Numbered from the stretch's first letter, positions 2,531 through 22,452 are shown. The stretch is 64,000 nucleotides of DNA from an uncultured Clostridia bacterium (GCA_947058385.1 CAMSGQ010000015.1:7692-71691); one strand, 5' to 3'. The notes: generated from the letters alone by a model not told the origin. Numbers and translations: made by a program.

Positions 2531-3310
2531 TTATTTTAAAATATTCATTTCTTTTTCATAAGCATTACAAATCTCTTCTGCCTTTCCCTGCATCATAATT
2601 TCCCCCTTCTTCATCCATACTGCATGGGTGCAAAGCTTTTTTACTTCATTCAAATTATGGGAAACATACAATAATGTAGTTCCCCTTTTTAGCATCTCAT
2701 TCATCCGTTCTTCACATTTTTTACGAAATTTCATATCTCCCACTGCTAATATTTCATCTACAATTAAAATTTCTGGCTTTACCATAGTAGCAACTGCAAA
2801 TCCCAACCTAGCTTTCATACCAGAAGAATAATTTTTAATTGGGGAATCTAAAAAATCTTCTAACTCTGCAAATGCTACAATTTCATCAAAATGTTCTTTC
2901 ATATATTTTTCTGTATGCCCTAACACACAGCCATTTAAAAATATATTTTCACGTGCAGTCATGTTTCCATCCAACCCTGCCCCTAGTTCAATCAAAGGTG
3001 CCACACTGCCATTGACTTGAATCTTTCCCCGATATGGTTTTATAATTCCACTAATTGCCTTTAGTAAAGTTGATTTCCCTGAACCATTTGCGCCAATAAT
3101 TCCCCAAGCTTCCCCAGTATAAACCTGAAAACTAACATCTTTTACTGCAAGAAACTCCTGAAATAAAAGTTCCTTTTTTATCACCTTTATGATATATTCT
3201 TTTAAGTTATCTATTTTTTGATTTGCCAAATTAAATCGAATTGTCACATGACTGACATCAATTTTAACCGAATGATTTCTCATCTTTTTCCCTCCATACA
3301 ATCTTAGCAC
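2531..3310 (-). CDS. ABC transporter ATP-binding protein, TagH/Wzt-like polysaccharide/teichoic acid exporter
   Basis: Walker A GANGSGKSTLLK, signature YSSGMKARL, Walker B ILIVDEILAVGD; adjacent ABC-2 permease. Confidence 0.8.
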   Translation of the reverse strand: MLRLYGGKKMRNHSVKIDVSHVTIRFNLANQKIDNLKEYIIKVIKKELLFQEFLAVKDVSFQVYTGEAWGIIGANGSGKSTLLKAISGIIKPYRGKIQVNGSVAPLIELGAGLDGNMTARENIFLNGCVLGHTEKYMKEHFDEIVAFAELEDFLDSPIKNYSSGMKARLGFAVATMVKPEILIVDEILAVGDMKFRKKCEERMNEMLKRGTTLLYVSHNLNEVKKLCTHAVWMKKGEIMMQGKAEEICNAYEKEMNILK

Positions 3311-3311
3311 T

Positions 3312-4100
3312 TTAGATATATAAAATAAATTTATCTTGATTTCTTAAAAAAGAAAAAACTCCAATTCCAAGCATAAGAACAGAAGTAACACATCCTGCAA
3401 GAATAATTAAATTTCCAGGTATCCTACCATAATACATTAAGTCTCGAAACTGTCCAATATAAAAATACATAGGATTGAAATGTTTAATAAACCATTGCAT
3501 TTTATCCGATAAAGAATCAATTGGATAAAAAATTGGAGTTAAATACATCCAAGCAGTTGTTAATGCCCCATAAATGTATTGAATATCTCGAAAAAATACA
3601 TTTGCTTGTGCTAAAAATAAACCAAGTCCAAGGCAAAAAATATACAACTGAATAGCGACAAATGGTACCAATAAATTATACCAGCTAAACTGTGCTTTTG
3701 TTACAATCATAACAACAAGTAATGCTCCAATGGAAAAGAAAAAATCCACTAATCCACTTGTTATCTTAGAAAAAGTAAAAATATATTTTGGGACATAAGC
3801 TTTCTTTAAAAATGCAGCATTTCCATCAATTGAAGATAGGGCTTGATGTGTTGACTGATTCATAAAATTAAACATCACTTGTCCAGTAAACAAATACACT
3901 GGAAAATTTTCTATATCTCTTTGAAACATAGTGGAAAATACAACTGTCATTACTATCATAATCATAAGTGGATTTAAAATACTCCATAAATATCCTAATA
4001 CACTTCTTCGATATTTCAATTTAATATCTCTTAAAACTAATTGTTTCAACAGATCTTTATAACGTAAAAAAATTAAAATACGTTTATAATACTTTTCCAT
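3312..4100 (-). CDS. ABC-2 type transporter permease (TagG/Wzm-like)
   Basis: Start moved to MEKYYKR (internal M of 312-aa ORF) giving typical ~260 aa; 6 TM; N-term LVLRDIKLKYRRSVLGYLWSILNP typical of Wzm/TagG. Confidence 0.7.
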   Translation of the reverse strand: MEKYYKRILIFLRYKDLLKQLVLRDIKLKYRRSVLGYLWSILNPLMIMIVMTVVFSTMFQRDIENFPVYLFTGQVMFNFMNQSTHQALSSIDGNAAFLKKAYVPKYIFTFSKITSGLVDFFFSIGALLVVMIVTKAQFSWYNLLVPFVAIQLYIFCLGLGLFLAQANVFFRDIQYIYGALTTAWMYLTPIFYPIDSLSDKMQWFIKHFNPMYFYIGQFRDLMYYGRIPGNLIILAGCVTSVLMLGIGVFSFLRNQDKFILYI

Positions 4101-4177
4101 AAAATTCAACAAGCACAACAACTTTAGCAGAAGAAGTGCTATCCTCCTTTTCCTTTGCATTACAACTAATTGACGCC

Positions 4178-5269
4178 TTATCCAATCCTTTGAAGCATAT
4201 ATTTTTTTGTTGGTTTTTCTATCATAAGATTCATCATAACAGCAAAGCAAATGTTTAAAATAAAAGAAAAAAGAAAAATAAGAAAAAAATTTTTCTCTTT
4301 TATTATCCCATTTTTTATTCCTAAAGTCACAATTCGATTCGCTAATGTCTGTGTCAAATAAAAACTATATTGTAAAGAAGATGCCCACTGAACCAGTTTA
4401 CCCCCCCAAGTTGTACGAGATTTAAAATTAAATTGTGTCATAAATAAAATCAAAATTCCAATATATGGAACTACAATAAAATTATATTGTGTATAATTTC
4501 CTTTTAAAATCTCAAAATACTGATTTACTGCCACAATAAAAAATATCGTAGCAATACTTACTGTAAAACAATTACACCATCTCTCTTTTTCTTTTCTTTT
4601 CAAAAACCATTCAGCCAATAACATCCCTATTACAAATTCTGGTAATCGTATTAAAAAATTAGTATAGTAACTTGCCATACTGCCACCAAACAAAAACTGC
4701 ATCAATCCATGATAAACACTAAGAAAATAACAAATTGCAAAACCAACAATAAAACAATATTTTTTATGTACTACTATTTTCTTTAAAATTATACTAATTA
4801 ATGGAAACAAAAAATATAAAAAAACCATTACTGATATAAACCAAGTTCCCCCATTTCCACAAATATTAAACGTGGTTGGAAAAAAAGTTTGTAAACAAAA
4901 AAATTCACATCCAAGTATAGCAAATACCTTTGGCAATGTATCAGGAAAAGATAATCGAAAACTAAAAATAATCATCAAAAACACAAAATAGGCAGGATAA
5001 ATACAAAAGAATCTTTTCCTATAAAACTTCTTTAAATTATTTTTATCTGAAAAATCGGTTTCTCGATAATGATATTGTAATACAAAACCAGATAACATAA
5101 AAAATCCTACCATAAAGATTGCTCCAACTGAAATAACACGATCCACCATTTCAATTACTATATTTCCATTTAAATGAATACTAAAATGAATGGAAAGATG
5201 AAAAAATGCTATTATCAATGCAAAAATAATTCTCAGCAAATCTAATCCTATCAATTTTTTCATAAACAA
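4178..5269 (-). CDS. acyltransferase family 3 (membrane O-acyltransferase)
   Basis: 363 aa polytopic; N-term LDLLRIIFALIIAFFHLSIH characteristic of Acyl_transf_3. Confidence 0.65.
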   Translation of the reverse strand: MFMKKLIGLDLLRIIFALIIAFFHLSIHFSIHLNGNIVIEMVDRVISVGAIFMVGFFMLSGFVLQYHYRETDFSDKNNLKKFYRKRFFCIYPAYFVFLMIIFSFRLSFPDTLPKVFAILGCEFFCLQTFFPTTFNICGNGGTWFISVMVFLYFLFPLISIILKKIVVHKKYCFIVGFAICYFLSVYHGLMQFLFGGSMASYYTNFLIRLPEFVIGMLLAEWFLKRKEKERWCNCFTVSIATIFFIVAVNQYFEILKGNYTQYNFIVVPYIGILILFMTQFNFKSRTTWGGKLVQWASSLQYSFYLTQTLANRIVTLGIKNGIIKEKNFFLIFLFSFILNICFAVMMNLMIEKPTKKYMLQRIG

Positions 5270-7944
5270 AAATCCCTCTCTTTTATTCCAATTTTCTCAC
5301 AGACACTACTATATATATTTTGCGCTGCATTTTTATGATTTGGAGGAATTAAATATTTTTGTATAAATAAACTTCTCTCTTGATATTTTATATCATTTCC
5401 ATTTATTACAACATCCTCAATAAAAGAACAAATTTCCTCTTTTAAATTCTCTTTTGCATGATACAATATTTCATAATTTTCCTTTCCGTATTCATTCATC
5501 CACACTCTAGCATTTCTTCCCACTGTAAACAACGCTGGTTTATTTACAGCCGTATATTCTCCTATAAATGAAATACTATCAAATATCATTGCATCTGATG
5601 TTAAAAATAAATCAATAAATTCTCCCTCTTCTAACTGTCCATTTTCAAGTTCTGCCCATTTCTGATAATATTCTTCCATTGTTTCCTTTCCCCACCGTTT
5701 TTCCAACTTTGGTTTTAACATAGGATGGGGCTTAAATGCGATCTGTATCTCATCTTTATATTTCTCTGCTATCTCAAACATAATATTTTTTAATTCATAA
5801 AAAGCATCAAATTGATATTGCCAAGCAGGAGTATTATCTTCATGATGGGGTGCCCATATAATACGCTTTTTTCTTTTTTCACTTTTTTTCCATCCATCAA
5901 CGGGCTGATATCCTTTTTCCCAAATTACATCTAATTTTGGAGAACCTGATACAATTACATTTTTTCCTTTATTGCTCATTTCTTGTTCTGCAATTTTTTT
6001 ATGAATTGGTGTGGCTAAAAAAAATCCATCTACCAGATTATTTAATTCAAAATTCATTGCTCGTTTATCCTCCGCCACATAAAACCCGTATGGTACAAGA
6101 AATGTCATTTTATCAGAAAACTTGGTAATATAGAAATTATTTTGAAAATGAGGCTTCCAAAATTTTGTATAAAATATAATGTCTGGATTAAGCTCCTTTC
6201 TAACATCGAAAAATCTATCTGTTTCCTTATCATATCCTTTTACTACTCGATATCCTTGTCTTTCTAACTCTTGATAGGTCTCTTCATGATAAGCAATCAT
6301 TGCTTCTTTTCCCTGTGAAACAAACGGTTTTATAACTACAAACGGCTTAAACTCTTTGCTTTGTTCAAATATATGATAGAGTTCTCCAAACAACCAACAA
6401 CTAATTCGAGATACAAAAAGACAGACAACAATTTTTTCCCCTTTTTTCCACTTATCCACTAAAGCTTTATGGCTTTTCTTTTTTCTTATAGAAAAATCCC
6501 TCTTTCCCTTTTCTATCCGCAATTTTTGCCAAACTTTTTTCCATTTATTTTTCAATAAAAATTCGATCCGTAAATTTTCATTTACCAATCGAAGCTTTGC
6601 TATATGGATTCGAAACAAATATAGTCCATATTCTCCTTTTCCTTTTTTTGAAACCCGAACCAAATCATGACGGCTAATTGCAAATTTTTTTTTCTTTAAA
6701 ACAGGATTTTTCTTTCCTACTTTTTTATTAGCAGGATCTTCATCCGAAAATAATTCCAATTCTCCTAGTTCATCACTATGTAAATCCAATAAGGTAAACT
6801 CTTCTAATCTACGTAACACATGCCGAAACCGATACCCTTGTTCAATCGCCTCATTTGAAGCGGAAACAATTTCACAACGTCTGCTTTCATCTGATAGTAA
6901 AATCTTACACTTCTCTCTTAATTCCATTTCAGAAGAAAAGGTAGGTAACTTTACTTTAGGAAAATAATTACGAATATCTGCCTTTTCCTCTGTCATCAAA
7001 CATGCTCCAGATGCCATAATATCACAAACCCGAAAAGAAAACCCATTTTGCGCTTGGATATGATTAGTACTTAAAGAAATCTTAGAATGATTATAAAAAT
7101 CCTCATTTTCTTTTAAAGTCAAGACAGAAGTTCTATTATAACATAATTCTACTTCTGGAAAATACTTCATACAATCAATATTCCAATAAGCCCCCCTTAT
7201 TTCTAAATCCAAATCAACAATACTTCTTAAATAATTAATTCTCCTTAATCCACTAATTTCATGTGCAGCTCGATTCAAGTCTCCCAAATTAAGTGATTTT
7301 TGTGGTTGCATATGTCCTTGATAAATAATTTCATGACTTGGATAAAAAGGAAGTTCTGTAAATTTTTTAATGACATTTTTTGCTATTTTTATATCTTCTT
7401 CCGAAGGATTTCTCTGCAAAAATTCATGTGAAAAATTATATCCTTTCCATAACCAATTTGTTCCTAAAAAACTAATATTATGTGTTTTTTCTATCTCTAT
7501 ATGTTGAATTTCTGTAAAAAAAGGAATCAAACAGATCTGATTTTCTTTTACCTCAAATATCTCCTGTAACAATTCCTGACCAGCTGTTTGATTTACAACA
7601 AATAAATATCGATCCAAATTTTCTTTCAAAAAATTTTTCCCTTTATACAATAAGGGAGAATCCACATCATATATCACAATTGGACAATCTACAATTTGAG
7701 AAATATCCCAGAAATTATTACAAAATAAAACACATAAATCTGGACAAAACGCAATTAGCTTTTCCTTATACTCATTTGGTATTTGACCCTTAAATTCTCT
7801 TCCAACTGTCTTGTGTTGATAACACAAAACATTATTCCCTGCATCCTGTAACCCTTTTAAAAAAGCTTCAAAAAAAGGAGGCATAGCATTAAAGTCTTCT
7901 TTTCTTCTTCCAAAATTATATAGTGCAATAAATACATTTGCCAT
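5260..7944 (-). CDS. fusion protein: CgeB-like glycosyltransferase domain + CDP-glycerol glycerophosphotransferase (TagF/TagB-like) domain
   Basis: ORF 5260..8046 (928 aa); start probably MANVFIALYNFG at 7944 (avoids overlap with upstream SDR). N-half FSFRVCDIMASGACLMTEE (CgeB/GT1-like); C-half FLVPYGFYVAEDK...IIWAPHHE...FKPHPM (Glyphos_transf-like). Confidence 0.6.
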   Translation of the reverse strand: MANVFIALYNFGRRKEDFNAMPPFFEAFLKGLQDAGNNVLCYQHKTVGREFKGQIPNEYKEKLIAFCPDLCVLFCNNFWDISQIVDCPIVIYDVDSPLLYKGKNFLKENLDRYLFVVNQTAGQELLQEIFEVKENQICLIPFFTEIQHIEIEKTHNISFLGTNWLWKGYNFSHEFLQRNPSEEDIKIAKNVIKKFTELPFYPSHEIIYQGHMQPQKSLNLGDLNRAAHEISGLRRINYLRSIVDLDLEIRGAYWNIDCMKYFPEVELCYNRTSVLTLKENEDFYNHSKISLSTNHIQAQNGFSFRVCDIMASGACLMTEEKADIRNYFPKVKLPTFSSEMELREKCKILLSDESRRCEIVSASNEAIEQGYRFRHVLRRLEEFTLLDLHSDELGELELFSDEDPANKKVGKKNPVLKKKKFAISRHDLVRVSKKGKGEYGLYLFRIHIAKLRLVNENLRIEFLLKNKWKKVWQKLRIEKGKRDFSIRKKKSHKALVDKWKKGEKIVVCLFVSRISCWLFGELYHIFEQSKEFKPFVVIKPFVSQGKEAMIAYHEETYQELERQGYRVVKGYDKETDRFFDVRKELNPDIIFYTKFWKPHFQNNFYITKFSDKMTFLVPYGFYVAEDKRAMNFELNNLVDGFFLATPIHKKIAEQEMSNKGKNVIVSGSPKLDVIWEKGYQPVDGWKKSEKRKKRIIWAPHHEDNTPAWQYQFDAFYELKNIMFEIAEKYKDEIQIAFKPHPMLKPKLEKRWGKETMEEYYQKWAELENGQLEEGEFIDLFLTSDAMIFDSISFIGEYTAVNKPALFTVGRNARVWMNEYGKENYEILYHAKENLKEEICSFIEDVVINGNDIKYQERSLFIQKYLIPPNHKNAAQNIYSSVCEKIGIKERDFCL

Positions 7945-7990
7945 ACAATCCACCTCAAACCAATTATTATTTTTTACTAAAACTTCAAAT

Positions 7991-9058
7991 TCATAAAATT
8001 CTTGAAACAACATTCCCCTCTTCCAATATTTGAATCGTCCTAACAATTGCTTCTTCTATCCCAAACTGAGCCCTCCATCCAAGTGCTTCTAATTTATCCG
8101 TTGAAAGAACTGCACAATTCATTTTATTTTGATATTCTTCCCCCTGCTTCTCTCTTTCCATTCTCACTAATACCCCTGCCTTTAACGCAATTTTTTCTGC
8201 AAACTCCCGAATCGATACCCGATTGCTCATATTCGAAACATTATAAACCTCTCCATCCACTCCTTTTGTTAATAAGCTACAAATTCCACTCACACTGTCA
8301 CTCACATAACAATACGACCGAATCTGCTTTCCCTCTGTATGTAACACAATATCTTGTTTTTCCACTGCTTTCTTTATAAATACCGCATGAATCCGACTAT
8401 CTTTTATCTGAAACGTAGAACCAAATGTATGTGATAGCCTTGCAATTACAATTGGAATATTCCACTGTTTAAAATAAGCCATACATAAATTTTCAGCTGC
8501 CCTTTTACTAACTGGATATGCATTCCTTACACAACGACTATCCATATATCCGCTTTCTTCTTCCTTCCAAGCAAACCCATTCTCTCCCGTTTCTTCTCCA
8601 ATCCCATACACTTCTCCAGTCGATATATAAATCATTTTTTCCTTAACAAACTCACGGGCATATCTTAAAAGATAAACTGCACTAAGCAAGTTTCCTTCTG
8701 CTGTTTCAACTGGACTTTCTTGAAACTTTTTTGGATCTGCATTACCTGCTAAATGAATGAGATAATCCACTTCTACTTGAAAAGAAATCTCCTCTTTTGC
8801 ATCATAAGGCAAAAAAGAAATATATTCTTTTTCTCCAAACCTTTGCTTTATTTTCTCTTTCTCTCTGCCACATAAGAATAACTGACAATGATACTGATAT
8901 GCTTCATTTAGATAAATCAACACATCCACGAAATGTGATCCAATACTTCCTGTTGCCCCTGTTATAAGAAAACTTTTTCCATATAATTGGCTGACTGATA
9001 AAATATTTTTTTTCACTGTCTCTAAATCTTCTCTATATAATTCACTCCAATTCTCCAT
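7991..9058 (-). CDS. NAD(P)-dependent SDR-family epimerase/dehydratase/reductase (candidate reductase half of a split Bcs1-type CDP-ribitol synthase)
   Basis: Rossmann ITGATGSIGSHFVDVL, catalytic Y..K region (YPVSKRAAE). Confidence 0.7.
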   Translation of the reverse strand: MENWSELYREDLETVKKNILSVSQLYGKSFLITGATGSIGSHFVDVLIYLNEAYQYHCQLFLCGREKEKIKQRFGEKEYISFLPYDAKEEISFQVEVDYLIHLAGNADPKKFQESPVETAEGNLLSAVYLLRYAREFVKEKMIYISTGEVYGIGEETGENGFAWKEEESGYMDSRCVRNAYPVSKRAAENLCMAYFKQWNIPIVIARLSHTFGSTFQIKDSRIHAVFIKKAVEKQDIVLHTEGKQIRSYCYVSDSVSGICSLLTKGVDGEVYNVSNMSNRVSIREFAEKIALKAGVLVRMEREKQGEEYQNKMNCAVLSTDKLEALGWRAQFGIEEAIVRTIQILEEGNVVSRIL

Positions 9059-9083: not shown

Positions 9084-9794
9084 TTATTTTAACCAGCCAG
9101 CCTTTTTCTCTGTTAATAACGCTTTAAAAATTTCAATATCTTCCACAGTTGTTAATTTAATATTTTTTTCTGATCCCAATGACAAATATAATTTTTCTCC
9201 AAGCTCTACAAACATTGTACAAGTCGCAATCGAAGAAAAAATTCCCTGTTTTAATGCCTCTTTATGTGCCCAAACTAGTTTCCCCAATGTAGCCGCCTGT
9301 GGAGTCTGTGTTCTTTTCAAATTATCACGTGGTACTTGTACCTCTGATGTACTACCATCTTTCGTCTTTAACATCGCTTCTGCACAGGGAATAACAGAAA
9401 CAGCATTTCCAAACTGTGTACATACCCTAATACAATCCGAAATAATCTCTTCTGACACCATTGGCCGAATCGCATCATGAATTAAAACAATATCTTCCTC
9501 TTTATGAATTTTTTTTATCTCATTAATCCCATTTCGAATTGACTCTTGTCCATTTTCTCCACCAGATACAATGCTTTCTAATTTATCTATTCCAAACTGC
9601 TTACAATAAGCTCTTAGTATTTCATGCCATCCTTCCAAGCATACTACTACAATACTATCAATATTGGGATGTTTTTGAAATGCTTCTAAAGTATAAATAA
9701 TCACTGGTTTATCATAGACATTTAAAAACTGTTTTGGAATATCTTGGTGCATCCGTTGCCCAGAACCTCCTGCAATTACTAACGCAATATTCAT
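9084..9794 (-). CDS. IspD/TarI-family cytidylyltransferase (likely ribitol-5-phosphate cytidylyltransferase)
   Basis: 236 aa, N-term LVIAGGSGQRM...PKQF typical of IspD/TarI. Confidence 0.75.
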   Translation of the reverse strand: MNIALVIAGGSGQRMHQDIPKQFLNVYDKPVIIYTLEAFQKHPNIDSIVVVCLEGWHEILRAYCKQFGIDKLESIVSGGENGQESIRNGINEIKKIHKEEDIVLIHDAIRPMVSEEIISDCIRVCTQFGNAVSVIPCAEAMLKTKDGSTSEVQVPRDNLKRTQTPQAATLGKLVWAHKEALKQGIFSSIATCTMFVELGEKLYLSLGSEKNIKLTTVEDIEIFKALLTEKKAGWLK

Positions 9795-9806: not shown

Positions 9807-10805
9807 TTATCGCTCAATTAATTCAATTAAAAATGAATTTGCTAGTGCTAAAAAGCAAATTCTTTTTTTAAAATATACTGACTCTTTTAATGGAGATACT
9901 ACCTTTGCTCTGCTTCGTTCGAATATTTCTATCGCTTTTTCTATATTTCCAACAAAAAATGCAACATGATAAAGATGGATATGGTTCTTTTGATAAAATT
10001 CTAATGTTGTACAATTTGGTAAGTTTTCCAAAAGTTCTAATCTTGGAAAATTTTCGCAATTTCCATACCCTTTGCCAATCAAAAATTGCCCTTTTACTCC
10101 TTGTTCTAAATCTTGAAAGACACTTCCCTCACGAATATATCCTAAAATTTTATAGGAAAATATTTCCCGTTCCAGTTCTTTTGTTGCTACTCCAATATGA
10201 TGAAATTCAAACTCTCCAATTGCACAGCGCATATTTCTTACAAAAATCTTATATGCTTTTCTTTCCAATTCCTCTTGTATCTGATTGTAGTAATACTCTC
10301 TATCTACATACTGCTCCACAGCATGATAAGTTCTTCCATTTAAAATAAAAAAATTTTCTAATCTTCCTCTTGTCTTTTGATGAATAGATTCATGAAACGC
10401 TATCACAGATCGATTTTCTTCTACTGTTCGGCAAAATAATTCTTCTAATCCAATTCGATTAAATGCCGCTTTATAGATTAAGTCAACACTTTCTACTGCT
10501 CCCATTGAGCCCTGTTTGATAACCCATCTTCCCCATTCTGCTTTGTTTCCTTCTCTATCATAGATCCCAATCAATCCTTCTCTTTCTCCTGTTATCTTAT
10601 TTTCAATCACAAAATAATAATCCTCTTTTCGAGTAAAATACGCTTCAATCCACTTTTCCTGCATCAATTGATCGTTTGGTATCTCATGAATATATTGATT
10701 TCTTTCCTTATCCTCTAAACGAACTTCCAGTATAAAAGATGCATCCATAAGTGTAACTGGACGTATTTTATAAGCATATCCTTCTACTGTTATTGTGTGT
10801 TTCAT
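9807..10805 (-). CDS. GNAT-family N-acyltransferase fused to VOC (glyoxalase/methylmalonyl-CoA-epimerase-like) domain
   Basis: Start moved to MKHTITVEGY (10805) so it does not overlap the carrier-protein gene. GNAT-like N-half; C-half HHIGVATKELERE ... HVAFFVGNIEKAIEIF typical VOC. Confidence 0.55.
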   Translation of the reverse strand: MKHTITVEGYAYKIRPVTLMDASFILEVRLEDKERNQYIHEIPNDQLMQEKWIEAYFTRKEDYYFVIENKITGEREGLIGIYDREGNKAEWGRWVIKQGSMGAVESVDLIYKAAFNRIGLEELFCRTVEENRSVIAFHESIHQKTRGRLENFFILNGRTYHAVEQYVDREYYYNQIQEELERKAYKIFVRNMRCAIGEFEFHHIGVATKELEREIFSYKILGYIREGSVFQDLEQGVKGQFLIGKGYGNCENFPRLELLENLPNCTTLEFYQKNHIHLYHVAFFVGNIEKAIEIFERSRAKVVSPLKESVYFKKRICFLALANSFLIELIER

Positions 10806-10849
10806 AAATAAAATCCTTTCTCTTTTCGTAGGCAAAAATTCTTGGACAA

Positions 10850-11071
10850 TTAGGATACCTTTTTTTGTAATGCACAAATAATTTCTGTAATTGTAGTAAT
10901 TTGAGCAAGTTCCTCCTGCTGAAATAAAATCCCATATTCCTCTTCTAATGCTAAAATAATTTCTATATGATTCATAGACCCCCACATCTTTGGTGTATCC
11001 AAATTTTCAAACAATTCTTTTTTTTCTAATTTTGTTATTTCTGTTATAATTTCAATCACTTTTTCTTTCAT
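10850..11071 (-). CDS. acyl/peptidyl carrier protein (PP-binding)
   Basis: 73 aa; WGSMNHIEIILALEEEYGI resembles carrier-protein Ser motif (DltC/ACP-like). Confidence 0.6.
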   Translation of the reverse strand: MKEKVIEIITEITKLEKKELFENLDTPKMWGSMNHIEIILALEEEYGILFQQEELAQITTITEIICALQKKVS

Positions 11072-12653
11072 TTTTTATTCCCTCTATCTCTATTTTTATA
11101 ACGTCCTTTGGCAATATATAATTCATCTCTTGTTCCTGATTGATATATTCCTTAGCATATTGATTTAAAAATTTTTCAGCCGGCGTATTTCTTTCTCCTT
11201 TTTGAAATAAAATCTTTACTTTTTTTAAACCAAACAAATCCTGTGCAATCGAAATAGAACCCAAAACAATGGCATCTTCTATTCCTCTTCCTAACGCCCT
11301 ACAGCTTATAAAACATTCTTCTAAAATCAAGAAATCGGTTGCCTTTTTTATTACACAAACTCCAATTAACCCACTATCGGACAATCGATCCTGTAGATTT
11401 ACTGCTATTACTATCATCTCTTTTCTTTGCATCCGTTCTTTTATTTCCTGAATGGAATACCTTTTATAAGAAAAAATAAATTGATTGGTCTTATTTGCCA
11501 ATTCCGAAATTCGCACTACACTTTCCAAAGGATTACACTGATACTGTAAAGTAATCTGCAAAGATTTTAAATATGCTTCTTTTGATAAGGTTTGTTTTAT
11601 CTTTTGTCGTTTTTGATTTTCTTTGATATCCTCTGAGCGAAGCTGATCCTCTTTCTGCATGGATAATTTCATAAGACCTGGATAATTTGCCAATATCGTA
11701 TTTGTTATCTGCGGATTCTCACTTGCCTGAATCACATGAATATCAGGATACTTTGCTAAAACTGATAAAATTTCTCCAATATTATCATCGATAAATAATA
11801 TACTATCGACATGAATATTTAAAAAATCTGCAATTTTTTCAATCATGCTTGACTTTTCTTCCCAAGAAGCACAGATTAGACTAAAATCCTCTTTTTTAAT
11901 AAGAAAATCTTTCCTTTGATCCAACAATTTCTCTACGTCTTGCTTTTCATTTTTACTTGCAATACAAATAAAAAATCCCTGATTAGCAAAATTTTTTAGC
12001 TGTTTTTGAAAAGAAAGATACGCTTTCGAAACTTCTATCTTTTCTATTCCATCTTCTCCTAAAATCCCTCTATATAAAGTATGATCTAAATCTACAACAA
12101 TCGCCTTTAGCATAGGCTTTAACAGTGCAGGAAGATATCGTAATCCTAAGTCTTTTGCTATCATCATACAGGCCTTTGCACTCAATCTCGTTCCTGATAT
12201 CTTTTCCAAACGTTCATCGAAATAGGCATTTCCTAATATTTCCTCTATTGAGTGAAAATCATAAAAAACCACATGTTGATATTCCATTGTTTTTCCTAAT
12301 AAAAGACACAAAATGGGTCTTTTATAAATAGAAAGCAATGTCTTTAACCGTTCTTTTAAAAATTCCTCTATCGCATCTATTTGATATCGTTTCATATCTA
12401 ACCAAAGAATCAGCATATCCGTATTTGAATTAAGTTGAAAAAAAGACAAACTATCATCATAATCACTATATAAAAAATTTACTTGCATCTTTGCATAATC
12501 AAGATAAGCAGATATCGTATGTTCTACTAATTCAAAAGAATGATTTCGATAAACTTGTATTTGATATCTTTTCTGTTCTTTGGAAGCAGTATAGGTTACT
12601 AATTCCTTTCTGCTTGGTTCTTTTTCAAATAAAAATTTTTGTAATTCCAACAT
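11052..12653 (-). CDS. FkbH-like HAD-superfamily (IIIC) protein with C-terminal acyltransferase-like domain
   Basis: 533 aa; HAD motif I AIVVDLDHTLY; motif IV LFIDDNIGE; size and architecture typical of FkbH-like domain proteins. Confidence 0.6.
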   Translation of the reverse strand: MLELQKFLFEKEPSRKELVTYTASKEQKRYQIQVYRNHSFELVEHTISAYLDYAKMQVNFLYSDYDDSLSFFQLNSNTDMLILWLDMKRYQIDAIEEFLKERLKTLLSIYKRPILCLLLGKTMEYQHVVFYDFHSIEEILGNAYFDERLEKISGTRLSAKACMMIAKDLGLRYLPALLKPMLKAIVVDLDHTLYRGILGEDGIEKIEVSKAYLSFQKQLKNFANQGFFICIASKNEKQDVEKLLDQRKDFLIKKEDFSLICASWEEKSSMIEKIADFLNIHVDSILFIDDNIGEILSVLAKYPDIHVIQASENPQITNTILANYPGLMKLSMQKEDQLRSEDIKENQKRQKIKQTLSKEAYLKSLQITLQYQCNPLESVVRISELANKTNQFIFSYKRYSIQEIKERMQRKEMIVIAVNLQDRLSDSGLIGVCVIKKATDFLILEECFISCRALGRGIEDAIVLGSISIAQDLFGLKKVKILFQKGERNTPAEKFLNQYAKEYINQEQEMNYILPKDVIKIEIEGIKNERKSD

Positions 12654-12666
12654 AAATACGCCACCT

Positions 12667-13770
12667 TTATCTTCTATAATGATTGATTGTTTTTATGACA
12701 TATTCCATCTGAGATTCTGTCATTCCATAATAGATTGGAATACTAAGAATACTGTTGCATAAACGCTCCGTTAAAGGAAATTCCCCTTTTTTAAATTTCA
12801 ATGTCTGATATGCTTTTTGTTTATGAATTGGAATGGGATAATGAATATTGGTTTCGATATTTTGCTCACTTAAATAATTCCTTAATGCATCTCGTTCTTC
12901 ACAGTATAATACAAATAAATGCCAAACACATTGGAACTTTTTATCTTCCTGCAAAGGAAGCCGAATCAATGGATGAGAAATTTCTTCTAAATATCTTTTT
13001 GCGATCCTCTTTCTTTCTTCATTCCAACGATCTAATTGCTCTAATTTTACTAATAAAAAAGCTGCTTGCATTTCATCTAACCTAGAATTTGTCCCCTGGT
13101 AAGTATGGATATATTTTTTTTCTGAACCATAGTTTCTTAACATCCTTACTTTTTTTGCCAATTCCAAATCATTTGTTACAACCATTCCAGCATCTCCTAA
13201 TGCTCCCAAATTCTTTCCTGGATAAAAACTAAATCCTGCAGCATCTCCTAATATTCCAACTTTTTTTCCTTGATACATCGCTCCATGTGCTTGTGCAGCA
13301 TCTTCAATGACTTTTAAATGATAGTTTCTAGCAATTGCAAGAATCGGTTCCATATCAGCCGATCTTCCATATAAATGCACTGCAATAATCGCTTTTGTTC
13401 TATCTGTAATCTTTTCCTCGATTTGTGCTGGATCTATTGTATAACTTTCTTCTTCTGGTTCTACCAATACAGGAATTGCCCCTGTATGGGATACAGCAAG
13501 AGCTGTTGCAATAAATGTATTAGCTGGAAGAATTACCTCATCATTCGCACCAATTCCCATTGCAAGTAAAATAAGATATAAGGCATCCAAACCGGTTCCA
13601 CACCCAATTGCAGCCTCTGCATTACAAAAAGAAGCAAATGCTGTTTCAAATTTTTCTAATTCTTTTCCCATAATAAAACTATTGTTTTGGTACACCTCTA
13701 AAAATTTTTCTTTTATTTGCATTTCGATTTCCTGATGCATTTTCTCCAAGGAGACAAATGGTACTCTCAT
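12667..13770 (-). CDS. DegT/DnrJ/EryC1/StrS-family PLP-dependent sugar aminotransferase
   Basis: 367 aa; [22 protein letters not shown] (PLP-Lys region). Confidence 0.85.
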
Positions 13771-14174
13771 ATTGTCCCTCCCTTTACCATTCCAAGAAAT
13801 TGATCATAATTTCGTATGTAATCAGATTCATCATAATATTCCGATGCCAATACCATTAAAACAGCATCTTCTGAAAAATCATACATTTCACGCCACATAG
13901 AATGGGCAATATATAAACCCTCATAGGGTTTTTCTAATGACACAATTTTCTTTTCTATTCCATTATCAAGAAGAATTTTACAAGATCCATGAATACAAAC
14001 TAAGATCTGCTCTAAACATTTATGTGCATGAAACCCCCGATGAATTCCATCTTTTGTTTCATACATATAATATACCCGCTTAATCTGAAACGGAATATCT
14101 TTTAACTCTTCTAGTGCTACCAGTTGTCCTCTTTCATCACCATGTTGTTGAAACATATATTTTAAAATTTGCAT
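13767..14174 (-). CDS. FdtA/WxcM-like sugar 3,4-ketoisomerase (cupin)
   Basis: 135 aa; [13 protein letters not shown]...[22 protein letters not shown] typical of dTDP-4-keto-6-deoxyhexose 3,4-isomerases. Confidence 0.7.
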
Positions 14175-14192: not shown

Positions 14193-15137
14193 TCAATTGT
14201 TCTTTTTCCTTCTTTTTTTCCTATAGACACGCAATGCATGAATCGGATAGCGAATTGAAATCAACAGTTGTTTTATTCGATTTTTTTGATACTTTTTTTG
14301 ATAAAAAAGAATTCTCCCTTCTCCTTTATGCCAATATTTCCATTTTTGATAGGAAAACCACCGTTTCAAAGGATATTTTGTATACTTTATAATCTCATTT
14401 CGAAAAATCAAATCGGAATCTTTTTCATACTGTTGATTAAAATTGATGGGTGAACTCATTCCTCCCGACCGATATTGAATCACAATTCGATCCCAAAATT
14501 CAATGTTTTCCCCCTTTCTTGTTAAAGATAAATAAGTAGGATAATCATCAACTAACTGGTATTTTTTACTGCAAATACCATATTTTTTTATATTCTCCCT
14601 ACTTCTAGCTGTACAACAGCCAAATATAAAATTTCCCTTTGTCAATTCCTCAAATAATTGTCTTGCATCTTTTTGCAAAAGAATCTCTACTTGTTCCTTC
14701 GTTGGAAGTAATCCCTGATATTGTTTCATCTCTTTATCATAAACTGCTCGATAAGCTGTTATAATTCCAGAACCCCTTTTTAAAAACTCACAGACCCATT
14801 CTTCTAATACAAGTGCATCATAAAAAATATCATCTCCTGCCAAATGAAAAATATAATTTCCCTTTACATACTGTAATGCAGAATAATAAGATTTTACTGT
14901 TCCTAGATTCGTCTTATTTTGATAAACAACATACTCTTCAATATTTGTCCTCTTTTTCTTTTCTATATAATTTTCTATCTCTTGTAAGGAAAAAGAAGAG
15001 GAAGCATCATCAAAAATCAAATATTGAATTCTTGGATAGGTTTGCATTAAAACAGAATCGATCGTTTCTTTTAAATGCAGACTATAATAAGCAAGTGTAA
15101 TTACGGTTATTAAATCCTTCATTTTTACTCTTTCCAT
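14193..15137 (-). CDS. glycosyltransferase family 2
   Basis: ITVITLAYYS...YLIFDDASS (DXD); start may be MKDL at 15122. Confidence 0.6.
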   Translation of the reverse strand: MERVKMKDLITVITLAYYSLHLKETIDSVLMQTYPRIQYLIFDDASSSFSLQEIENYIEKKKRTNIEEYVVYQNKTNLGTVKSYYSALQYVKGNYIFHLAGDDIFYDALVLEEWVCEFLKRGSGIITAYRAVYDKEMKQYQGLLPTKEQVEILLQKDARQLFEELTKGNFIFGCCTARSRENIKKYGICSKKYQLVDDYPTYLSLTRKGENIEFWDRIVIQYRSGGMSSPINFNQQYEKDSDLIFRNEIIKYTKYPLKRWFSYQKWKYWHKGEGRILFYQKKYQKNRIKQLLISIRYPIHALRVYRKKRRKKNN

Positions 15138-16018
15138 TCTAGATTATACTTCTGATGAAATCCCATATCCTGTTTCCATGCATCCCAAATTGCATCTTTT
15201 ATCAACTGACGTATTTTTTTCTTTTGAAAAATATATCTGATAAAGTAATAACCACTTTGTAAAATGGCCTGCTTCTTTCCCATATGCTGAATATAGGCAT
15301 GAATTTTATTTCTGATATTATAATAAGTTTTCCATGTAAACCCTGTAGTTAAATTGGTATCATGTATTATTTTTATACTAGGTATACAGCAAATTTTTCC
15401 CTGCTTTCTTATTCGATAACTATGTTCACTGTCATCATATGCGATAAAATAATCTCGATTTGGCAAACCCGCCTGTATAAGTGCTTCTTTTGAAAGTGCT
15501 GTTCCAACATAAGAAAAAAGAGTAATAAAAAAAATATCCTTTTTATATTCTTCTTCTGATACTCTCTCTTCTAAAATTCCATACCATTTTTTAATCACTC
15601 GCCTTCGATGCCAAGTATCAATTTTCCCTTTTCTCCAAACACTGCCACAAATTGCTGCTACTTTCTTTTTCTTTAATCGCTCAATCCACTTTTCTAAAAT
15701 TTCGATTCCATCTAATGCAATATAAGCATCATCATCCGCTACCCAAATCCATTCTGCATCCAGATCTTTTGCAAACTGTAATCCTTTATAATATCCGCCA
15801 CTTCCTCCCAAATTTTCTTTTAATATAATACCTTTATGTTGTATTTCTTCTTGTCTTTCCATCCAATCTTCTATATAGTTTGCTGTTCCATCTGTTGAGC
15901 CATTATCTACAACAAGAATATAAGCAGGTTTTCTATTTTGGCTTTCATAGGAATTTAATGCCTTTTTTAATTTTTCTATCCGATTATAAGTAACTATCAC
16001 AACTCCGATTTTATTCAT
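15125..16018 (-). CDS. glycosyltransferase family 2
   Basis: GVVIVTYNR...ILVVDNGSTDGT. Confidence 0.8.
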   Translation of the reverse strand: MNKIGVVIVTYNRIEKLKKALNSYESQNRKPAYILVVDNGSTDGTANYIEDWMERQEEIQHKGIILKENLGGSGGYYKGLQFAKDLDAEWIWVADDDAYIALDGIEILEKWIERLKKKKVAAICGSVWRKGKIDTWHRRRVIKKWYGILEERVSEEEYKKDIFFITLFSYVGTALSKEALIQAGLPNRDYFIAYDDSEHSYRIRKQGKICCIPSIKIIHDTNLTTGFTWKTYYNIRNKIHAYIQHMGKKQAILQSGYYFIRYIFQKKKIRQLIKDAIWDAWKQDMGFHQKYNLEWKE

Positions 16019-16976
16019 AACTTTCTCCTACTAGAAAAAACATCATTCCTGTATAAAAATCACCTAATACACTTCTAAATGAAATATAATTTAAATGAAA
16101 TAAATTATAAAAAAAGAGAGAGAAGATTCTATTTCTTGAATAAAATTCTTTTCGTTTCTTTTGAAAAGCAATCGCTTTCTTTAAATATGGTATCTGCGTA
16201 CGATGTGTCAAGGCTGTTGCCTGTAAGGAGTGTTCTATTTCTGTTATCATATTTTCTCTTTTCTTTTTTCTGGCAGCAGATTTTCTAACAGCAGAAAGGG
16301 AAAATGTGATTCCAACTGTATTTTTTGTATGTAATCGATACCTAGTTAATACGATATTTAGAAAATATAATCCATTGTAGTAGGCTGCCTCTTGATTTAA
16401 TTGCCAATCATGAGGAAGACCTTCCCAATATTTTGAACTACTGATTTGATTCCATAAAACTTTCCTTATCGCCATAGCCATTCCCGGATATTTAGGATGT
16501 CTTAAAAAGGATTTCCAATTTATCTTTTTACTTTTTTGAGAAAAAAATCGATAAAACCAATCTTCTTTTCTTCTCTTTCCATTTTCATCAATAAGCCGAT
16601 ATGCTGTAGACAATGCTAATATATTTGGATAGCGGTCAAAAAAGTTTTTGCAGACTTCTATCTTATTTTTTTCCCAGACATCATCTTGATCTGAGAGAAA
16701 GATCAGATCTCCCTTTGCAAGTCTTAAACCATTCCGAAAATTTTTTGCATATCCTAGTCGCTTTGAATTACAATAAAAATAAATTGCAATCTTTGTTTTT
16801 TTTTGAAAAGAGCGAATAATTTCTGATGTAGAATCCGAAGAATGATCATCACTAATAATAATTTCATCTGGCTGATAAGTCTGATTACAGATAGATTCTA
16901 ATTGTTCTTGTAAATATCGTTCTCCATTATAAGTTGCCATCACAACAGAAATCATGTTTTCTCTCCTTATCTCCAA
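16011..16976 (-). CDS. glycosyltransferase family 2
   Basis: ISVVMATYNGERYL...IIISDDHSSDST. Confidence 0.8.
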   Translation of the reverse strand: MEIRRENMISVVMATYNGERYLQEQLESICNQTYQPDEIIISDDHSSDSTSEIIRSFQKKTKIAIYFYCNSKRLGYAKNFRNGLRLAKGDLIFLSDQDDVWEKNKIEVCKNFFDRYPNILALSTAYRLIDENGKRRKEDWFYRFFSQKSKKINWKSFLRHPKYPGMAMAIRKVLWNQISSSKYWEGLPHDWQLNQEAAYYNGLYFLNIVLTRYRLHTKNTVGITFSLSAVRKSAARKKKRENMITEIEHSLQATALTHRTQIPYLKKAIAFQKKRKEFYSRNRIFSLFFYNLFHLNYISFRSVLGDFYTGMMFFLVGESYE

Positions 16977-17713
16977 TATTTTTTGACTCCATTATATAAA
17001 TGAAGTCCTGTATAAAATAATGCCTGTGATATACTCATTCCCATATAGCGATGCATCCCATAAGTCATCTTTGCTGACTTAAATCGATTTCTTGATTTTC
17101 CCTCTTTGCTTAAACGGTAAGAAACTAATGGTTCATTAATGCCATATGCTTTTTTGTATTTTTTCAAACACTTTAACCAAACCATATAATCCTCATGATA
17201 CTCATCATGTTCCATAGGAAACTCTAATGCAGCCTCTCTTTTTATCAATACAGAAGAACAAACAATGCGATTTCCTTGTAAAAGTTCTTGGTAGGTCAGA
17301 TCGGTTTGTACTGAAATAATTTTATGTAAATCTTCCCCTTGATGGCTATATAATTTTCTTGCAGTATAACAAAGTGCCATCTTTTTTTGTTGCATCAAAG
17401 CCAACTGTTTTTCTAATTTTTCTTGTTCCCACCAATCATCCGCATCCAAAAAAGCAATATACCTTCCTTTTGCTTTCCAAACTCCAATATTTCTTGTTCT
17501 AGCAACTCCTAAATTACTTGCATTTTTTAAATAAATTACTCGGTTGTCCATACAATACTTTTTAACAATATTCTCTGTTTGGTCTTTCGAAGCGTCATCA
17601 ATAATAATCAGTTCTAACTTTACTTTTTGTATTAATACAGATTGTATTGCCTGTTCGATAAATTTTTCTGCATTATAAGCTGGCATAACAACAGAAATTA
17701 GATTCTCTTCCAT
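16967..17713 (-). CDS. glycosyltransferase family 2
   Basis: ISVVMPAYNAEKFI...IIIDDASKDQT. Confidence 0.8.
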   Translation of the reverse strand: MEENLISVVMPAYNAEKFIEQAIQSVLIQKVKLELIIIDDASKDQTENIVKKYCMDNRVIYLKNASNLGVARTRNIGVWKAKGRYIAFLDADDWWEQEKLEKQLALMQQKKMALCYTARKLYSHQGEDLHKIISVQTDLTYQELLQGNRIVCSSVLIKREAALEFPMEHDEYHEDYMVWLKCLKKYKKAYGINEPLVSYRLSKEGKSRNRFKSAKMTYGMHRYMGMSISQALFYTGLHLYNGVKKYWR

Positions 17714-21240: not shown

Positions 21241-22452
21241 TTATTCTTTCCTATTTTCTTCTTTATAATAGGATAAAAATCTTTTTCCTACATTTCTAGC
21301 GGTATTTAATCCACTATTTCCTTGATGTCCATTCGGGCATAAAAAAAGCTGTCCTCCATAATAATTTTGACTTGGTATATGTCCTGTATTATAACGTTTA
21401 ATTTTTGCACCACATTCATTACAGCAATCTGAAATATGATAAGTTGGAACACGGCTTACAAGAATCCCCTCTGAAAAAGCCTTATATTTTAAATACCGAA
21501 TGACACGTCTGCCAATCCATTCAAAATTATCCGTTTTTAAATACCCCTTTTTCGAAAAATCAATTGTTTTTTGATAATTAGGAATCACAATTATTGTTAC
21601 TCCATTTGCCTTGCAAAACTCTATTATTCTACGACTTGTTCTGTGTGCATAGAATTGATTTAGATTTTCAATTTTTTTCAAGCAATTCTCTTTTTCTTTT
21701 CCTATTTCTCTTTCCCATTTCCTTTTCCATTTTTTCTTTTTTGCTTTTAATTCCAATCCACCTTGAAAAAACATCGTCTTTTCTAAATCACCATTTTTCC
21801 TTAGAATCGCTCCAACTGCAATACTATTATTTCCTGGAAATGATAAAGCAAGTACTTTTTCTACCTCTTTTATTTGCTCTTTTACAGGATGAATTCCTAC
21901 TATTTGTTTTCGAATTGGTATCTGTAAATATGCCTGTTTTTGACTTGCATCAATAATTGGTGATAATACTTCTACATTCTCTGGTAATTGACGCCCAGTA
22001 AAACGATAACGACTCCATTTCCATTTTTCTTTTGTATAAACTTTTAATAAAATAGAATCTTCTTTTCGCTCTTTATACATTCCTTTATAGTAAACTGGAG
22101 CAGCAAAAAAATTTTCTGCTTTAAATAAAATATTGCTTCTTGCCATACCAATTGCACAATTAATGGCAGCTCTTCTAAAATACAATGGGATTACTGGAAA
22201 ATCAATAAAAGGAAAACTGGCTTTTTCTTTCGCTTTTTGCATCTCCTTCGTTCCTATTGTGGCTACTTCTAATTTACGCATTAAATTAAAATTACTTATT
22301 GTAAGCCACTCTGGATATGTAGTTAATAAATCATAATAATGTTTTACTACTTTGTTATATAAAATTCTTGTTTCAAAAAGCCAATCCAAATGCTTATCAT
22401 AAAAACGAAAACGATAGGTTATTGTGATTGTTCCATTCTTTTCTTCTACCAT
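21241..22452 (-). CDS. TnpB (IS200/IS605 OrfB)-like protein with all three RuvC catalytic residues substituted: candidate nuclease-dead, TldR-like RNA-guided regulator
   Basis: 403 aa; N-term YRFRFY...RILYNKVV (OrfB N-term); RuvC-I position VLALSFPGNNSIAVG lacks Asp; RuvC-II TIIVIPNYQ lacks Glu; zinc-finger CCNECG...CPNGH followed by NSGLNTARNV instead of D.D.NAA.NI. Confidence 0.75.
   Translation of the reverse strand: MVEEKNGTITITYRFRFYDKHLDWLFETRILYNKVVKHYYDLLTTYPEWLTISNFNLMRKLEVATIGTKEMQKAKEKASFPFIDFPVIPLYFRRAAINCAIGMARSNILFKAENFFAAPVYYKGMYKERKEDSILLKVYTKEKWKWSRYRFTGRQLPENVEVLSPIIDASQKQAYLQIPIRKQIVGIHPVKEQIKEVEKVLALSFPGNNSIAVGAILRKNGDLEKTMFFQGGLELKAKKKKWKRKWEREIGKEKENCLKKIENLNQFYAHRTSRRIIEFCKANGVTIIVIPNYQKTIDFSKKGYLKTDNFEWIGRRVIRYLKYKAFSEGILVSRVPTYHISDCCNECGAKIKRYNTGHIPSQNYYGGQLFLCPNGHQGNSGLNTARNVGKRFLSYYKEENRKE

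Follow-up and report, generated by a model that had tools for sequence, protein, structure and literature searches.

The window analysed here is a stretch of 64,000 nucleotides from an uncultured Clostridia bacterium (GCA_947058385.1 CAMSGQ010000015.1:7692-71691), with ~32% G+C and a strong strand bias, the minus strand carrying nearly all genes. A set of five genes at 9807-14174 on that strand probably directs the synthesis of an N-glyceroylated dTDP-3-amino-3,6-dideoxyhexose (Fuc3N or Qui3N, in either case a rare sugar), in which the acyl unit would be made by an FkbH-like protein, held on a dedicated acyl carrier protein (ACP) and passed to the sugar by a GNAT enzyme fused to a VOC domain. 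An earlier note on this DNA had proposed such a pathway, and both the presence of the five-gene set and its coordinates were confirmed. All of the part families are already known, as are N-acyl variants of Fuc3N and Qui3N as a theme; what appears to be new is the combination of a polyketide-type glyceryl-ACP generator, a VOC protein and a GNAT on a nucleotide sugar. The genes and domains of the set are as follows.

13767-14174, minus strand: FdtA/QdtA-type dTDP-4-keto-6-deoxyglucose 3,4-ketoisomerase, 135 aa (PF05523, E 1.6e-50)
12667-13770, minus strand: pyridoxal phosphate (PLP)-dependent dTDP-3-keto-6-deoxyhexose 3-aminotransferase of the QdtB/FdtB (DegT) type, 367 aa (PF01041, E 9e-118)
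11052-12653, minus strand: FkbH-like protein in three parts, 533 aa (TIGR01686, 286.3 bits; TIGR01681, 68 bits)
10850-11071, minus strand: dedicated ACP, 73 aa, with Ser32 in W-G-S-M (sub-threshold ACP/PP-binding matches and an invariant Ser)
10302-10805, minus strand: GNAT domain (residues ~1-168) of a 332-aa fusion, predicted dTDP-3-amino-3,6-dideoxyhexose N-acyltransferase (Acetyltransf_3, E 4e-12)
9807-10217, minus strand: VOC domain of the fusion (residues ~197-332 plus stop), glyoxalase I/methylmalonyl-CoA-epimerase-like (Glyoxalase_4, E 1.3e-8)

Since neighbouring genes in the set either overlap or are separated by gaps of no more than 44 nt, with a 4 nt overlap between the DegT and FdtA genes and the start of the carrier gene running 20 nt into the stop end of the FkbH gene, the five are almost certainly co-translated, and they most likely form one operon with two converging halves. 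The fusion of a GNAT to a VOC/epimerase-like domain, as described in the earlier note, was upheld by the domain matches. The gene start called for one correction: the 392-aa open reading frame (ORF) from GTG 10985 is too long and runs into the carrier gene, and the family length of ~326 aa, together with independent gene calls on other contigs, places the real start at ATG 10805, giving 332 aa. A matching locus with the same gene calls, including the 73-aa and 332-aa products, was found on 16 contigs from several sequencing runs, and the gene order downstream of the cassette is likewise kept on other contigs. The nearest relative in the genome collection is an uncultured Lachnospiraceae metagenome-assembled genome, the FkbH protein of which is 67% identical.

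The sugar half of the operon

The assignment of the FdtA and DegT genes to the 3-amino-3,6-dideoxyhexose route, made in the earlier note, agrees with both the profile matches and the nearest solved structures. The best solved relative of the isomerase is FdtA (2PA7, 157 bits, with QdtA 4ZU7 at 136 bits), and its RGFHAHK catalytic His pair aligns with the same motif in 2PA7. For the aminotransferase the nearest solved structure is that of QdtB (3FRK, E 7.6e-145), matched end to end (residues 1-365 against 1-364), and S-F-Y-P-G-K, which includes the PLP lysine, can be read in the translated gene. An FdtA-type isomerase with such an aminotransferase is the established route to a dTDP-3-amino-3,6-dideoxyhexose, so that on this homology the sugar assignment is very likely to be correct. 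Between Fuc3N and Qui3N the sequences point two ways: the isomerase lies nearest to FdtA, of the galacto route, and the aminotransferase nearest to QdtB, of the gluco route; the isomerase sequence by itself does not give the product configuration, galacto or gluco. As the earlier note had also remarked, the usual acetyltransferase is missing, there being no Hexapep match, and hence no hexapeptide (FdtC/QdtC-type) left-handed beta-helix (LbH) enzyme, in any gene between 2531 and 21106.

The FkbH-like protein and its carrier

The FkbH-like protein carries the DLDHTLY motif, already singled out in the earlier note, at residues 188-194, and its scores lie well above the cut-offs of both the FkbH model TIGR01686 (286.3 against 146.65 bits, profile positions 2-320 of 323 covered) and the HAD-IIIC model TIGR01681 (68 against 35.75 bits). 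The three parts are an SGNH/flavodoxin-like region (~1-175), a HAD-IIIC phosphatase (~183-330) and an acyl-transfer domain of GNAT-like fold with Cys451 in S-C-R, so that the C-terminal acyltransferase part on which the earlier reading depended is present. The protein belongs to a family of ~530-aa proteins (>1,100 matches, ~50% identity) found in Firmicutes, Proteobacteria, Spirochaetes and others, whilst a PDB sequence search matched only 3SLR, an uncharacterised BF1531 fragment.

The window protein was aligned in a set of six that included ZmaN, a Streptomyces FkbH and the Campylobacter jejuni homologue, the ZmaN and Streptomyces reference sequences having been obtained by plasmid tblastn. 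Around the HAD-IIIC gene of Bacillus thuringiensis pBMB400 lie a hybrid non-ribosomal peptide synthetase (NRPS)/polyketide synthase (PKS) gene and genes for a flavin oxidoreductase, an ABC exporter and NRPS proteins, a neighbourhood that we take to be the zmaK-zmaQ order and the HAD-IIIC gene therefore to encode ZmaN of the zwittermicin cluster; the Streptomyces reference has a FabH-like gene and an ACP on its flanks. The HAD motifs (D188/D190/T192, S233-K234-N235, K267 and D289-D290) are identical in all six proteins, as are the acyl-transfer residues (three Arg, T389-N390-Q391, D422 and N489), and C451 is the sole Cys invariant across the six. Among 36 family members D188, D190, T192, K234, K267 and D289-D290 are invariant and S233 nearly so. 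The conserved C-terminal Cys is presumably the site of the acyl-S-enzyme intermediate reported for OzmB, and it is from this and from its conservation that C451 takes its proposed role. Invariant HAD residues and the retention of both active sites together point to a substrate with an acyl phosphate and a phosphate monoester in one molecule, for which 1,3-bisphosphoglycerate (1,3-BPG) is the obvious candidate. The established substrate of FkbH enzymes is 1,3-BPG (PMC7489565).

It is improbable that this subfamily instead loads another acyl group from another phosphorylated donor and that its likeness to FkbH is one of shared mechanism only. An identity of only ~25% to ZmaN and the Streptomyces FkbH, subfamily-specific invariants (e.g. 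Y194, D201, R247, D249, K388, R398 and R488) and an extra N-terminal domain of unassigned role would all fit that view, yet the three Arg, TNQ, D422 and SCR are identical in PKS/NRPS-type and glycan-type proteins. The two sites together require an acyl phosphate that also has a phosphate monoester, and of the common metabolites 1,3-BPG alone has both; in Campylobacter the homologue goes together with an acyl group derived from glycerate (see below).

The earlier description of a free-standing carrier was upheld. The gene is separate and Ser32, on which the carrier assignment hinged, occupies an alignment position where 73 of 73 carrier proteins encoded beside FkbH homologues have Ser; the Trp two residues ahead of it is likewise invariant (73/73), and the family motif is W-[D/x]-S-[L/M] with H/R-[IV]-E conserved after it. 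The PP-binding profile match, on the other hand, stays below the gathering score, and the best NCBIfam ACP model gave 29.6 bits against 71; NF002148 matched at E 4e-7.

Conservation of the cassette across genomes

A scan of one genome per species gave 79 loci, which come from many phyla. With the window proteins as BLAST probes, the carrier protein was found to be encoded in 72 of these and a VOC protein in 63 (33 GNAT-fused and 30 free-standing), by which count VOC is a near-constant partner of this FkbH subfamily and not the optional extra that the earlier note had implied. FdtA is found in 41/79 loci and DegT (at least 38% identity) in 36/79. The linkage is closest for the GNAT-VOC fusion: 28 of the 33 fusion loci have FdtA, the other five all have <5 kb of upstream sequence, and every fusion locus with at least 5 kb upstream carries it. 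The genes rmlA/rmlB stand beside the cassette in about one third of the related loci, and all five genes are met with together in other phyla as well.

The FkbH-ACP-VOC core is always accompanied by some N-acyltransferase and an aminotransferase. In loci that lack the GNAT the companion of the core is a PglD-like hexapeptide (LbH) transferase (L044 and L069), whilst Campylobacter has an Antibiotic_NAT-type gene together with a Cj1295-like protein; elsewhere DegT-GNAT (P0298) and GNAT-methyltransferase (P0313) fusions occur, and a methyltransferase follows VOC in eight loci. That one core is found with such swapped N-acyltransferases (GNAT, LbH/PglD-like and Antibiotic_NAT) argues that FkbH-ACP-VOC acts as an acyl-donor module.

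Among 5,426 complete Escherichia coli genomes the sole carrier of the cassette is strain MARGA_3 (L082, chromosome 1877626-1898834), where it lies between galF and gnd inside a wzm/wzt-type O-antigen cluster that comprises rfbBADC, FdtA, FkbH-ACP-GNAT/VOC, an 849-aa GT1-like plus FkbM-methyltransferase protein and DegT. None of these genomes combines the cassette with an O-antigen whose structure is known. The MARGA_3 cluster is a tractable model for the chemistry of the cassette. Other culturable carriers are Vibrio ruber DSM 16370 (L019), Mixta tenebrionis BIT-26 (L026), Enterocloster aldenensis (L017) and Lachnoanaerobaculum sp. ICM7 (L006).

Other arrangements were also seen. A second cassette type, in Campylobacter, Helicobacter and Gastranaerophilales (L039, L040, L043, L056-L060, L063, L067, L074 and L079), has a free VOC with FabH-like and FabG-like genes and a second ACP beside FkbH, and could add two carbons to the glyceryl unit ahead of transfer. 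In four loci of Oscillospiraceae/Faecalibacterium (L004, L009, L010 and L023) the N-terminal fusion partner of VOC is another one, a region of ~150 aa that matches nothing in Pfam and resembles GNAT little or not at all, and a Cj1295-like DUF4910 protein takes the place of FdtA.

The GNAT-VOC fusion

The best PDB sequence match of the GNAT domain is FdhC (5KTA, E 3e-13, ~26% identity), and in a Foldseek search with the pLDDT-92 model FdhC structures (5KTC/5KTA) took ranks 1-2 for the GNAT half, with a TM-score of 0.78-0.81 on the target. From its gene context the window GNAT would take acyl-ACP instead of acyl-CoA as donor. The nearest characterised GNATs, FdhC and PseH, use CoA donors, and acyl-ACP use by a GNAT of this type is something that we infer, which would suit a different reading in which the GNAT N-acetylates or N-acylates the sugar from a CoA thioester, as FdhC and PseH do, whilst FkbH, ACP and VOC have an unrelated part in decorating the polymer or its lipid anchor. 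We give this little credence given that VOC, which accompanies FkbH-ACP everywhere, forms a single chain with GNAT in 33 loci, that the FkbH-ACP-GNAT/VOC order is fixed and translationally coupled, and that the FkbH-ACP-VOC core never stands apart from an N-acyltransferase and an aminotransferase.

The closest solved relative of the VOC half is the Clostridium acetobutylicum Ni-glyoxalase I 3HDP, and all of 38 homologues keep the metal ligands (H203, E257, H280 and E328/E331). Assignment as a true methylmalonyl-CoA epimerase was rejected on the score against the equivalog model TIGR03081 (28.2 bits against a cut-off of 114.95). A purely structural or binding role, as for the VOC domain of BlmB (2ZW4), was also rejected on the invariant metal ligands and on the substitution of free VOC proteins in 30 loci, and is further opposed by a natural C. 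jejuni strain that has no VOC and no dimethylglyceroyl glycan. On chemical grounds VOC may be a C2 epimerase, an assignment that we make tentatively; we know of no VOC enzyme that acts on a carrier-bound 2,3-dihydroxyacyl thioester.

Glycerate-derived acyl groups in Campylobacter and elsewhere

The flagellin of C. jejuni NCTC 11168 bears 7-acetamido-5-(2,3-di-O-methylglyceroyl)amino pseudaminic acid (PMC3068675), and dimethylglyceroyl pseudaminic acid has also been detected as the CMP-sugar (2026 preprint). The glycosylation island of this strain contains cj1302 (FkbH domain) and cj1301 (‘epimerase’), both intact (PMC7099621). In the study of Sacher et al. cj1302 is a pseudogene in strain 12664 and strain 12661 is without cj1301, and neither shows the dimethylglyceroyl glycans of 11168 (PMC7099621). 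This is the outcome expected if FkbH and VOC are both needed for a glycerate-derived N-acyl group, and it hints at such a need. The C. jejuni FkbH (520 aa) is 39% identical to the window protein over ~500 aa, and in the C. jejuni loci that were fetched VOC, a methyltransferase and a WxS carrier protein precede FkbH; no direct test of the cj1299-cj1302 genes was found in the accessible literature. N-glyceroyl sugars also occur in Tannerella forsythia (Pse5Am7Gra) and Pragia fontium. Their genetic basis in T. forsythia was called a major open challenge in 2017 (PMC5378307), and several ORFs of the T. forsythia Pse locus were left unassigned and set aside as irrelevant (PMC6120980).

These data bear on a further alternative, namely that the acyl group is glycerate-derived without being glyceroyl, VOC eliminating the 3-hydroxyl or rearranging the thioester such that GNAT transfers a pyruvoyl, 2-hydroxyacryloyl or lactoyl-type group. 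VOC is present in 63/79 loci, though PKS FkbH systems work without it, and its nearest structure, 3HDP, is a true glyoxalase I with the same enediolate chemistry. We nonetheless regard this as unlikely: the cassette encodes no reductase for a lactoyl group, the C. jejuni product keeps both glycerate oxygens as O-methyl ethers with VOC present and apparently required, and methyltransferases recur beside the cassette or fused to GNAT, which fits free hydroxyls on the acyl group.

Proposed pathway

In the pathway that we favour, RmlA and RmlB, encoded outside the window, would supply dTDP-4-keto-6-deoxyglucose, which FdtA would convert to the 3-keto sugar and the QdtB/FdtB-type enzyme would transaminate to dTDP-3-amino-3,6-dideoxyhexose (Fuc3N or Qui3N). 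In parallel FkbH would form glyceryl-S-Cys451 from 1,3-BPG, its HAD domain stripping the 3-phosphate, and the D-glyceryl unit would move onto the Ser32-phosphopantetheine of the dedicated carrier. There the metal-dependent VOC would act on the 2-hydroxyacyl thioester, most simply by C2 inversion via a metal-bound enediolate, before the fused FdhC-like GNAT placed the acyl group on N3 of the sugar, giving dTDP-3-(glyceroylamino)-3,6-dideoxyhexose. Neighbouring glycosyltransferases would then insert the sugar into a wall glycopolymer exported by the ABC transporter. The isomerase/aminotransferase and GNAT transfer steps are proposed on close homology, those of FkbH loading and carrier transfer on family membership plus conserved residues. 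Domain identities, catalytic residues and conserved linkage can be taken from the sequences themselves; from these we infer the substrate, the identity of the acyl group, the ACP as donor and an epimerase role for VOC. For the acyl group, glyceroyl is on balance the likelier identity.

Several observations weigh against this pathway. Identity to biochemically studied FkbH proteins is only ~25-26%, and many invariant residues are peculiar to the subfamily. The carrier falls below the profile thresholds (PF00550, 16.8 bits against 20.8; PF14573, 17.3 against 32), and FdhC, the nearest GNAT, uses acyl-CoA and not acyl-ACP. PKS-type FkbH systems need no VOC, so that a near-obligatory VOC may mean an end product other than plain glyceroyl. 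Neither a domain scan of the locus genes nor inspection by eye of the 25.6-64 kb region (ORFs of at least 180 aa) revealed rmlA or rmlB. Sacher et al. did not link gene loss to the glycan, the Campylobacter evidence is correlative with other genes differing too, and the Campylobacter acyltransferase belongs to a different family from the window GNAT. Finally, a full-text literature search returned no experimental study of the cassette or of any FdtA-plus-cassette locus.

Wider significance of the FkbH-ACP-VOC core

It is conceivable, and we suggest it with reserve, that FkbH-ACP-VOC is a mobile, phylum-spanning ‘glyceroyl-donor’ module and the missing genetic basis of N-glyceroyl sugars generally, serving dimethylglyceroyl pseudaminic acid (Pse) in C. 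jejuni, possibly Pse5Am7Gra in T. forsythia, and a Fuc3N/Qui3N derivative here. If so, two new activities would follow: a GNAT acylating a nucleotide sugar from an acyl carrier protein, not from CoA, and a VOC metalloenzyme epimerising a carrier-bound 2-hydroxyacyl (glyceryl) thioester. A polyketide-type building-block enzyme would thereby be tied to glycan tailoring. Pathogens such as C. jejuni and T. forsythia carry N-glyceroyl amino sugars on their flagella and S-layers, and some O-antigens contain them too; the present locus with its 79 relatives offers a concrete, directly testable gene set for the question of the origin of these sugars. N-glyceroyl and O-methyl-glyceroyl epitopes might then be predicted from genomes of gut commensals, for Enterobacterales O-antigens (one E. 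coli strain) and for others, with uses in serotyping, in the prediction of phage receptors and vaccine antigens and in the enzymatic synthesis of unusual nucleotide sugars.

Genomic setting of the operon

The five genes lie within a single co-directional glycopolymer locus that, by domain scan of the window, spans 22.4 kb to 2.5 kb, and the setting is most likely a cell-wall polysaccharide locus of a gut-type Firmicute. The flanking genes are listed from upstream to downstream.

Further upstream of the four family-2 glycosyltransferase genes, same direction: DUF6020 membrane protein, then GtrB-like family-2 glycosyltransferase, DUF2304 and SMR-like protein (domain scan)
14193-17713, minus strand: four family-2 glycosyltransferases directly upstream of the set and in the same direction, polymer-assembly context (PF00535, E 3e-15 to 3e-34)
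9084-9794, minus strand: IspD/TarI-like cytidylyltransferase (downstream context)
7991-9058, minus strand: SDR protein (downstream context)
5260-8046, minus strand: GT1-like plus TagF-like transferase, 928 aa (downstream context)
4178-5269, minus strand: Acyl_transf_3 protein (downstream context)
3312-4250, minus strand: ABC-2 permease (downstream context)
2531-3310, minus strand: ABC ATPase (downstream context)

An IspD-SDR pair is also found 3-5 kb downstream of the FkbH cassette in unrelated phyla (Enterocloster, Elusimicrobiales and Mailhella; loci compared were L003, L012, L017, L031 and L034), and in L012 a TagF-like phosphotransferase precedes the pair. The presence of IspD/TarI-like, SDR and TagF-like genes near the cassette hints at a single glycan module in which the N-acyl sugar goes together with an alditol-phosphate, probably ribitol-phosphate.

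At the upstream edge of the glycopolymer locus lies a gene for a 403-aa TnpB-like protein (21241-22452, minus strand; Cas12f1-like TNB domain, E 8e-8, with PF27142 on record), which occupies the same place on other contigs. Elsewhere in the window an 811-aa protein (30780-33215, minus strand) matches the major-vault-protein shoulder (PF11978, E 5e-21) and a vault repeat (PF17795, E 4e-6), which is unusual for a Firmicute; its gene adjoins, on the downstream side, that of a 596-aa actin-like ATPase (33234-35024, minus strand; PilM/FtsA/MreB matches).

Comparison with known systems

The sugar half has its counterparts in FdtA/FdtB/FdtC of Aneurinibacillus thermoaerophilus and QdtA/QdtB/QdtC of Thermoanaerobacterium thermosaccharolyticum, which lead to dTDP-Fuc3NAc and dTDP-Qui3NAc respectively. 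The isomerase and aminotransferase are clear homologues and the setting, a Gram-positive surface glycan, is shared, whereas the hexapeptide FdtC/QdtC is absent from the window and the N-acyl step would be taken by GNAT-VOC with its own carrier and FkbH. For that step the nearest precedent is FdhC of Acinetobacter nosocomialis O12 (5KTA/5KTC), likewise a GNAT that places a hydroxyacyl group (3-hydroxybutanoyl) on dTDP-Fuc3N; FdhC, however, is a free 188-aa protein with an acyl-CoA donor, whilst the window GNAT is fused to VOC and encoded beside an ACP and a predicted acyl-ACP-forming enzyme.

With FkbH systems of the PKS/NRPS type the window protein shares a TIGR01686 score above the cut-off, all HAD motifs, the S-C-R Cys and an ACP encoded next door. 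It differs in its ~25% identity, in its glycan locus setting and in the nearly obligatory VOC partner of its subfamily, and in fate the acyl-ACP would differ too, forming an amide on a nucleotide sugar where that of the PKS type is turned by oxidation into (methoxy)malonyl-ACP or enters a tetronate by condensation. Methylmalonyl-CoA epimerase and Ni-glyoxalase I (3HDP/2QH0) resemble the VOC half in their single-chain fold and His/Glu/His/Glu metal site, and act on thioesters or hemithioacetals via an enolate or enediolate, whereas the substrate of the window VOC would be a carrier-bound 2,3-dihydroxyacyl thioester.

A parallel to the acyl half is cj1299-cj1302 of C. jejuni, in which the same FkbH subfamily, a WxS-type ACP and a free VOC stand side by side. 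That system differs in its sugar, pseudaminic acid, and in its acyltransferase candidates, which are of the Antibiotic_NAT family plus Cj1295, and it has an O-methyltransferase, FabH2 and a second ACP in addition.

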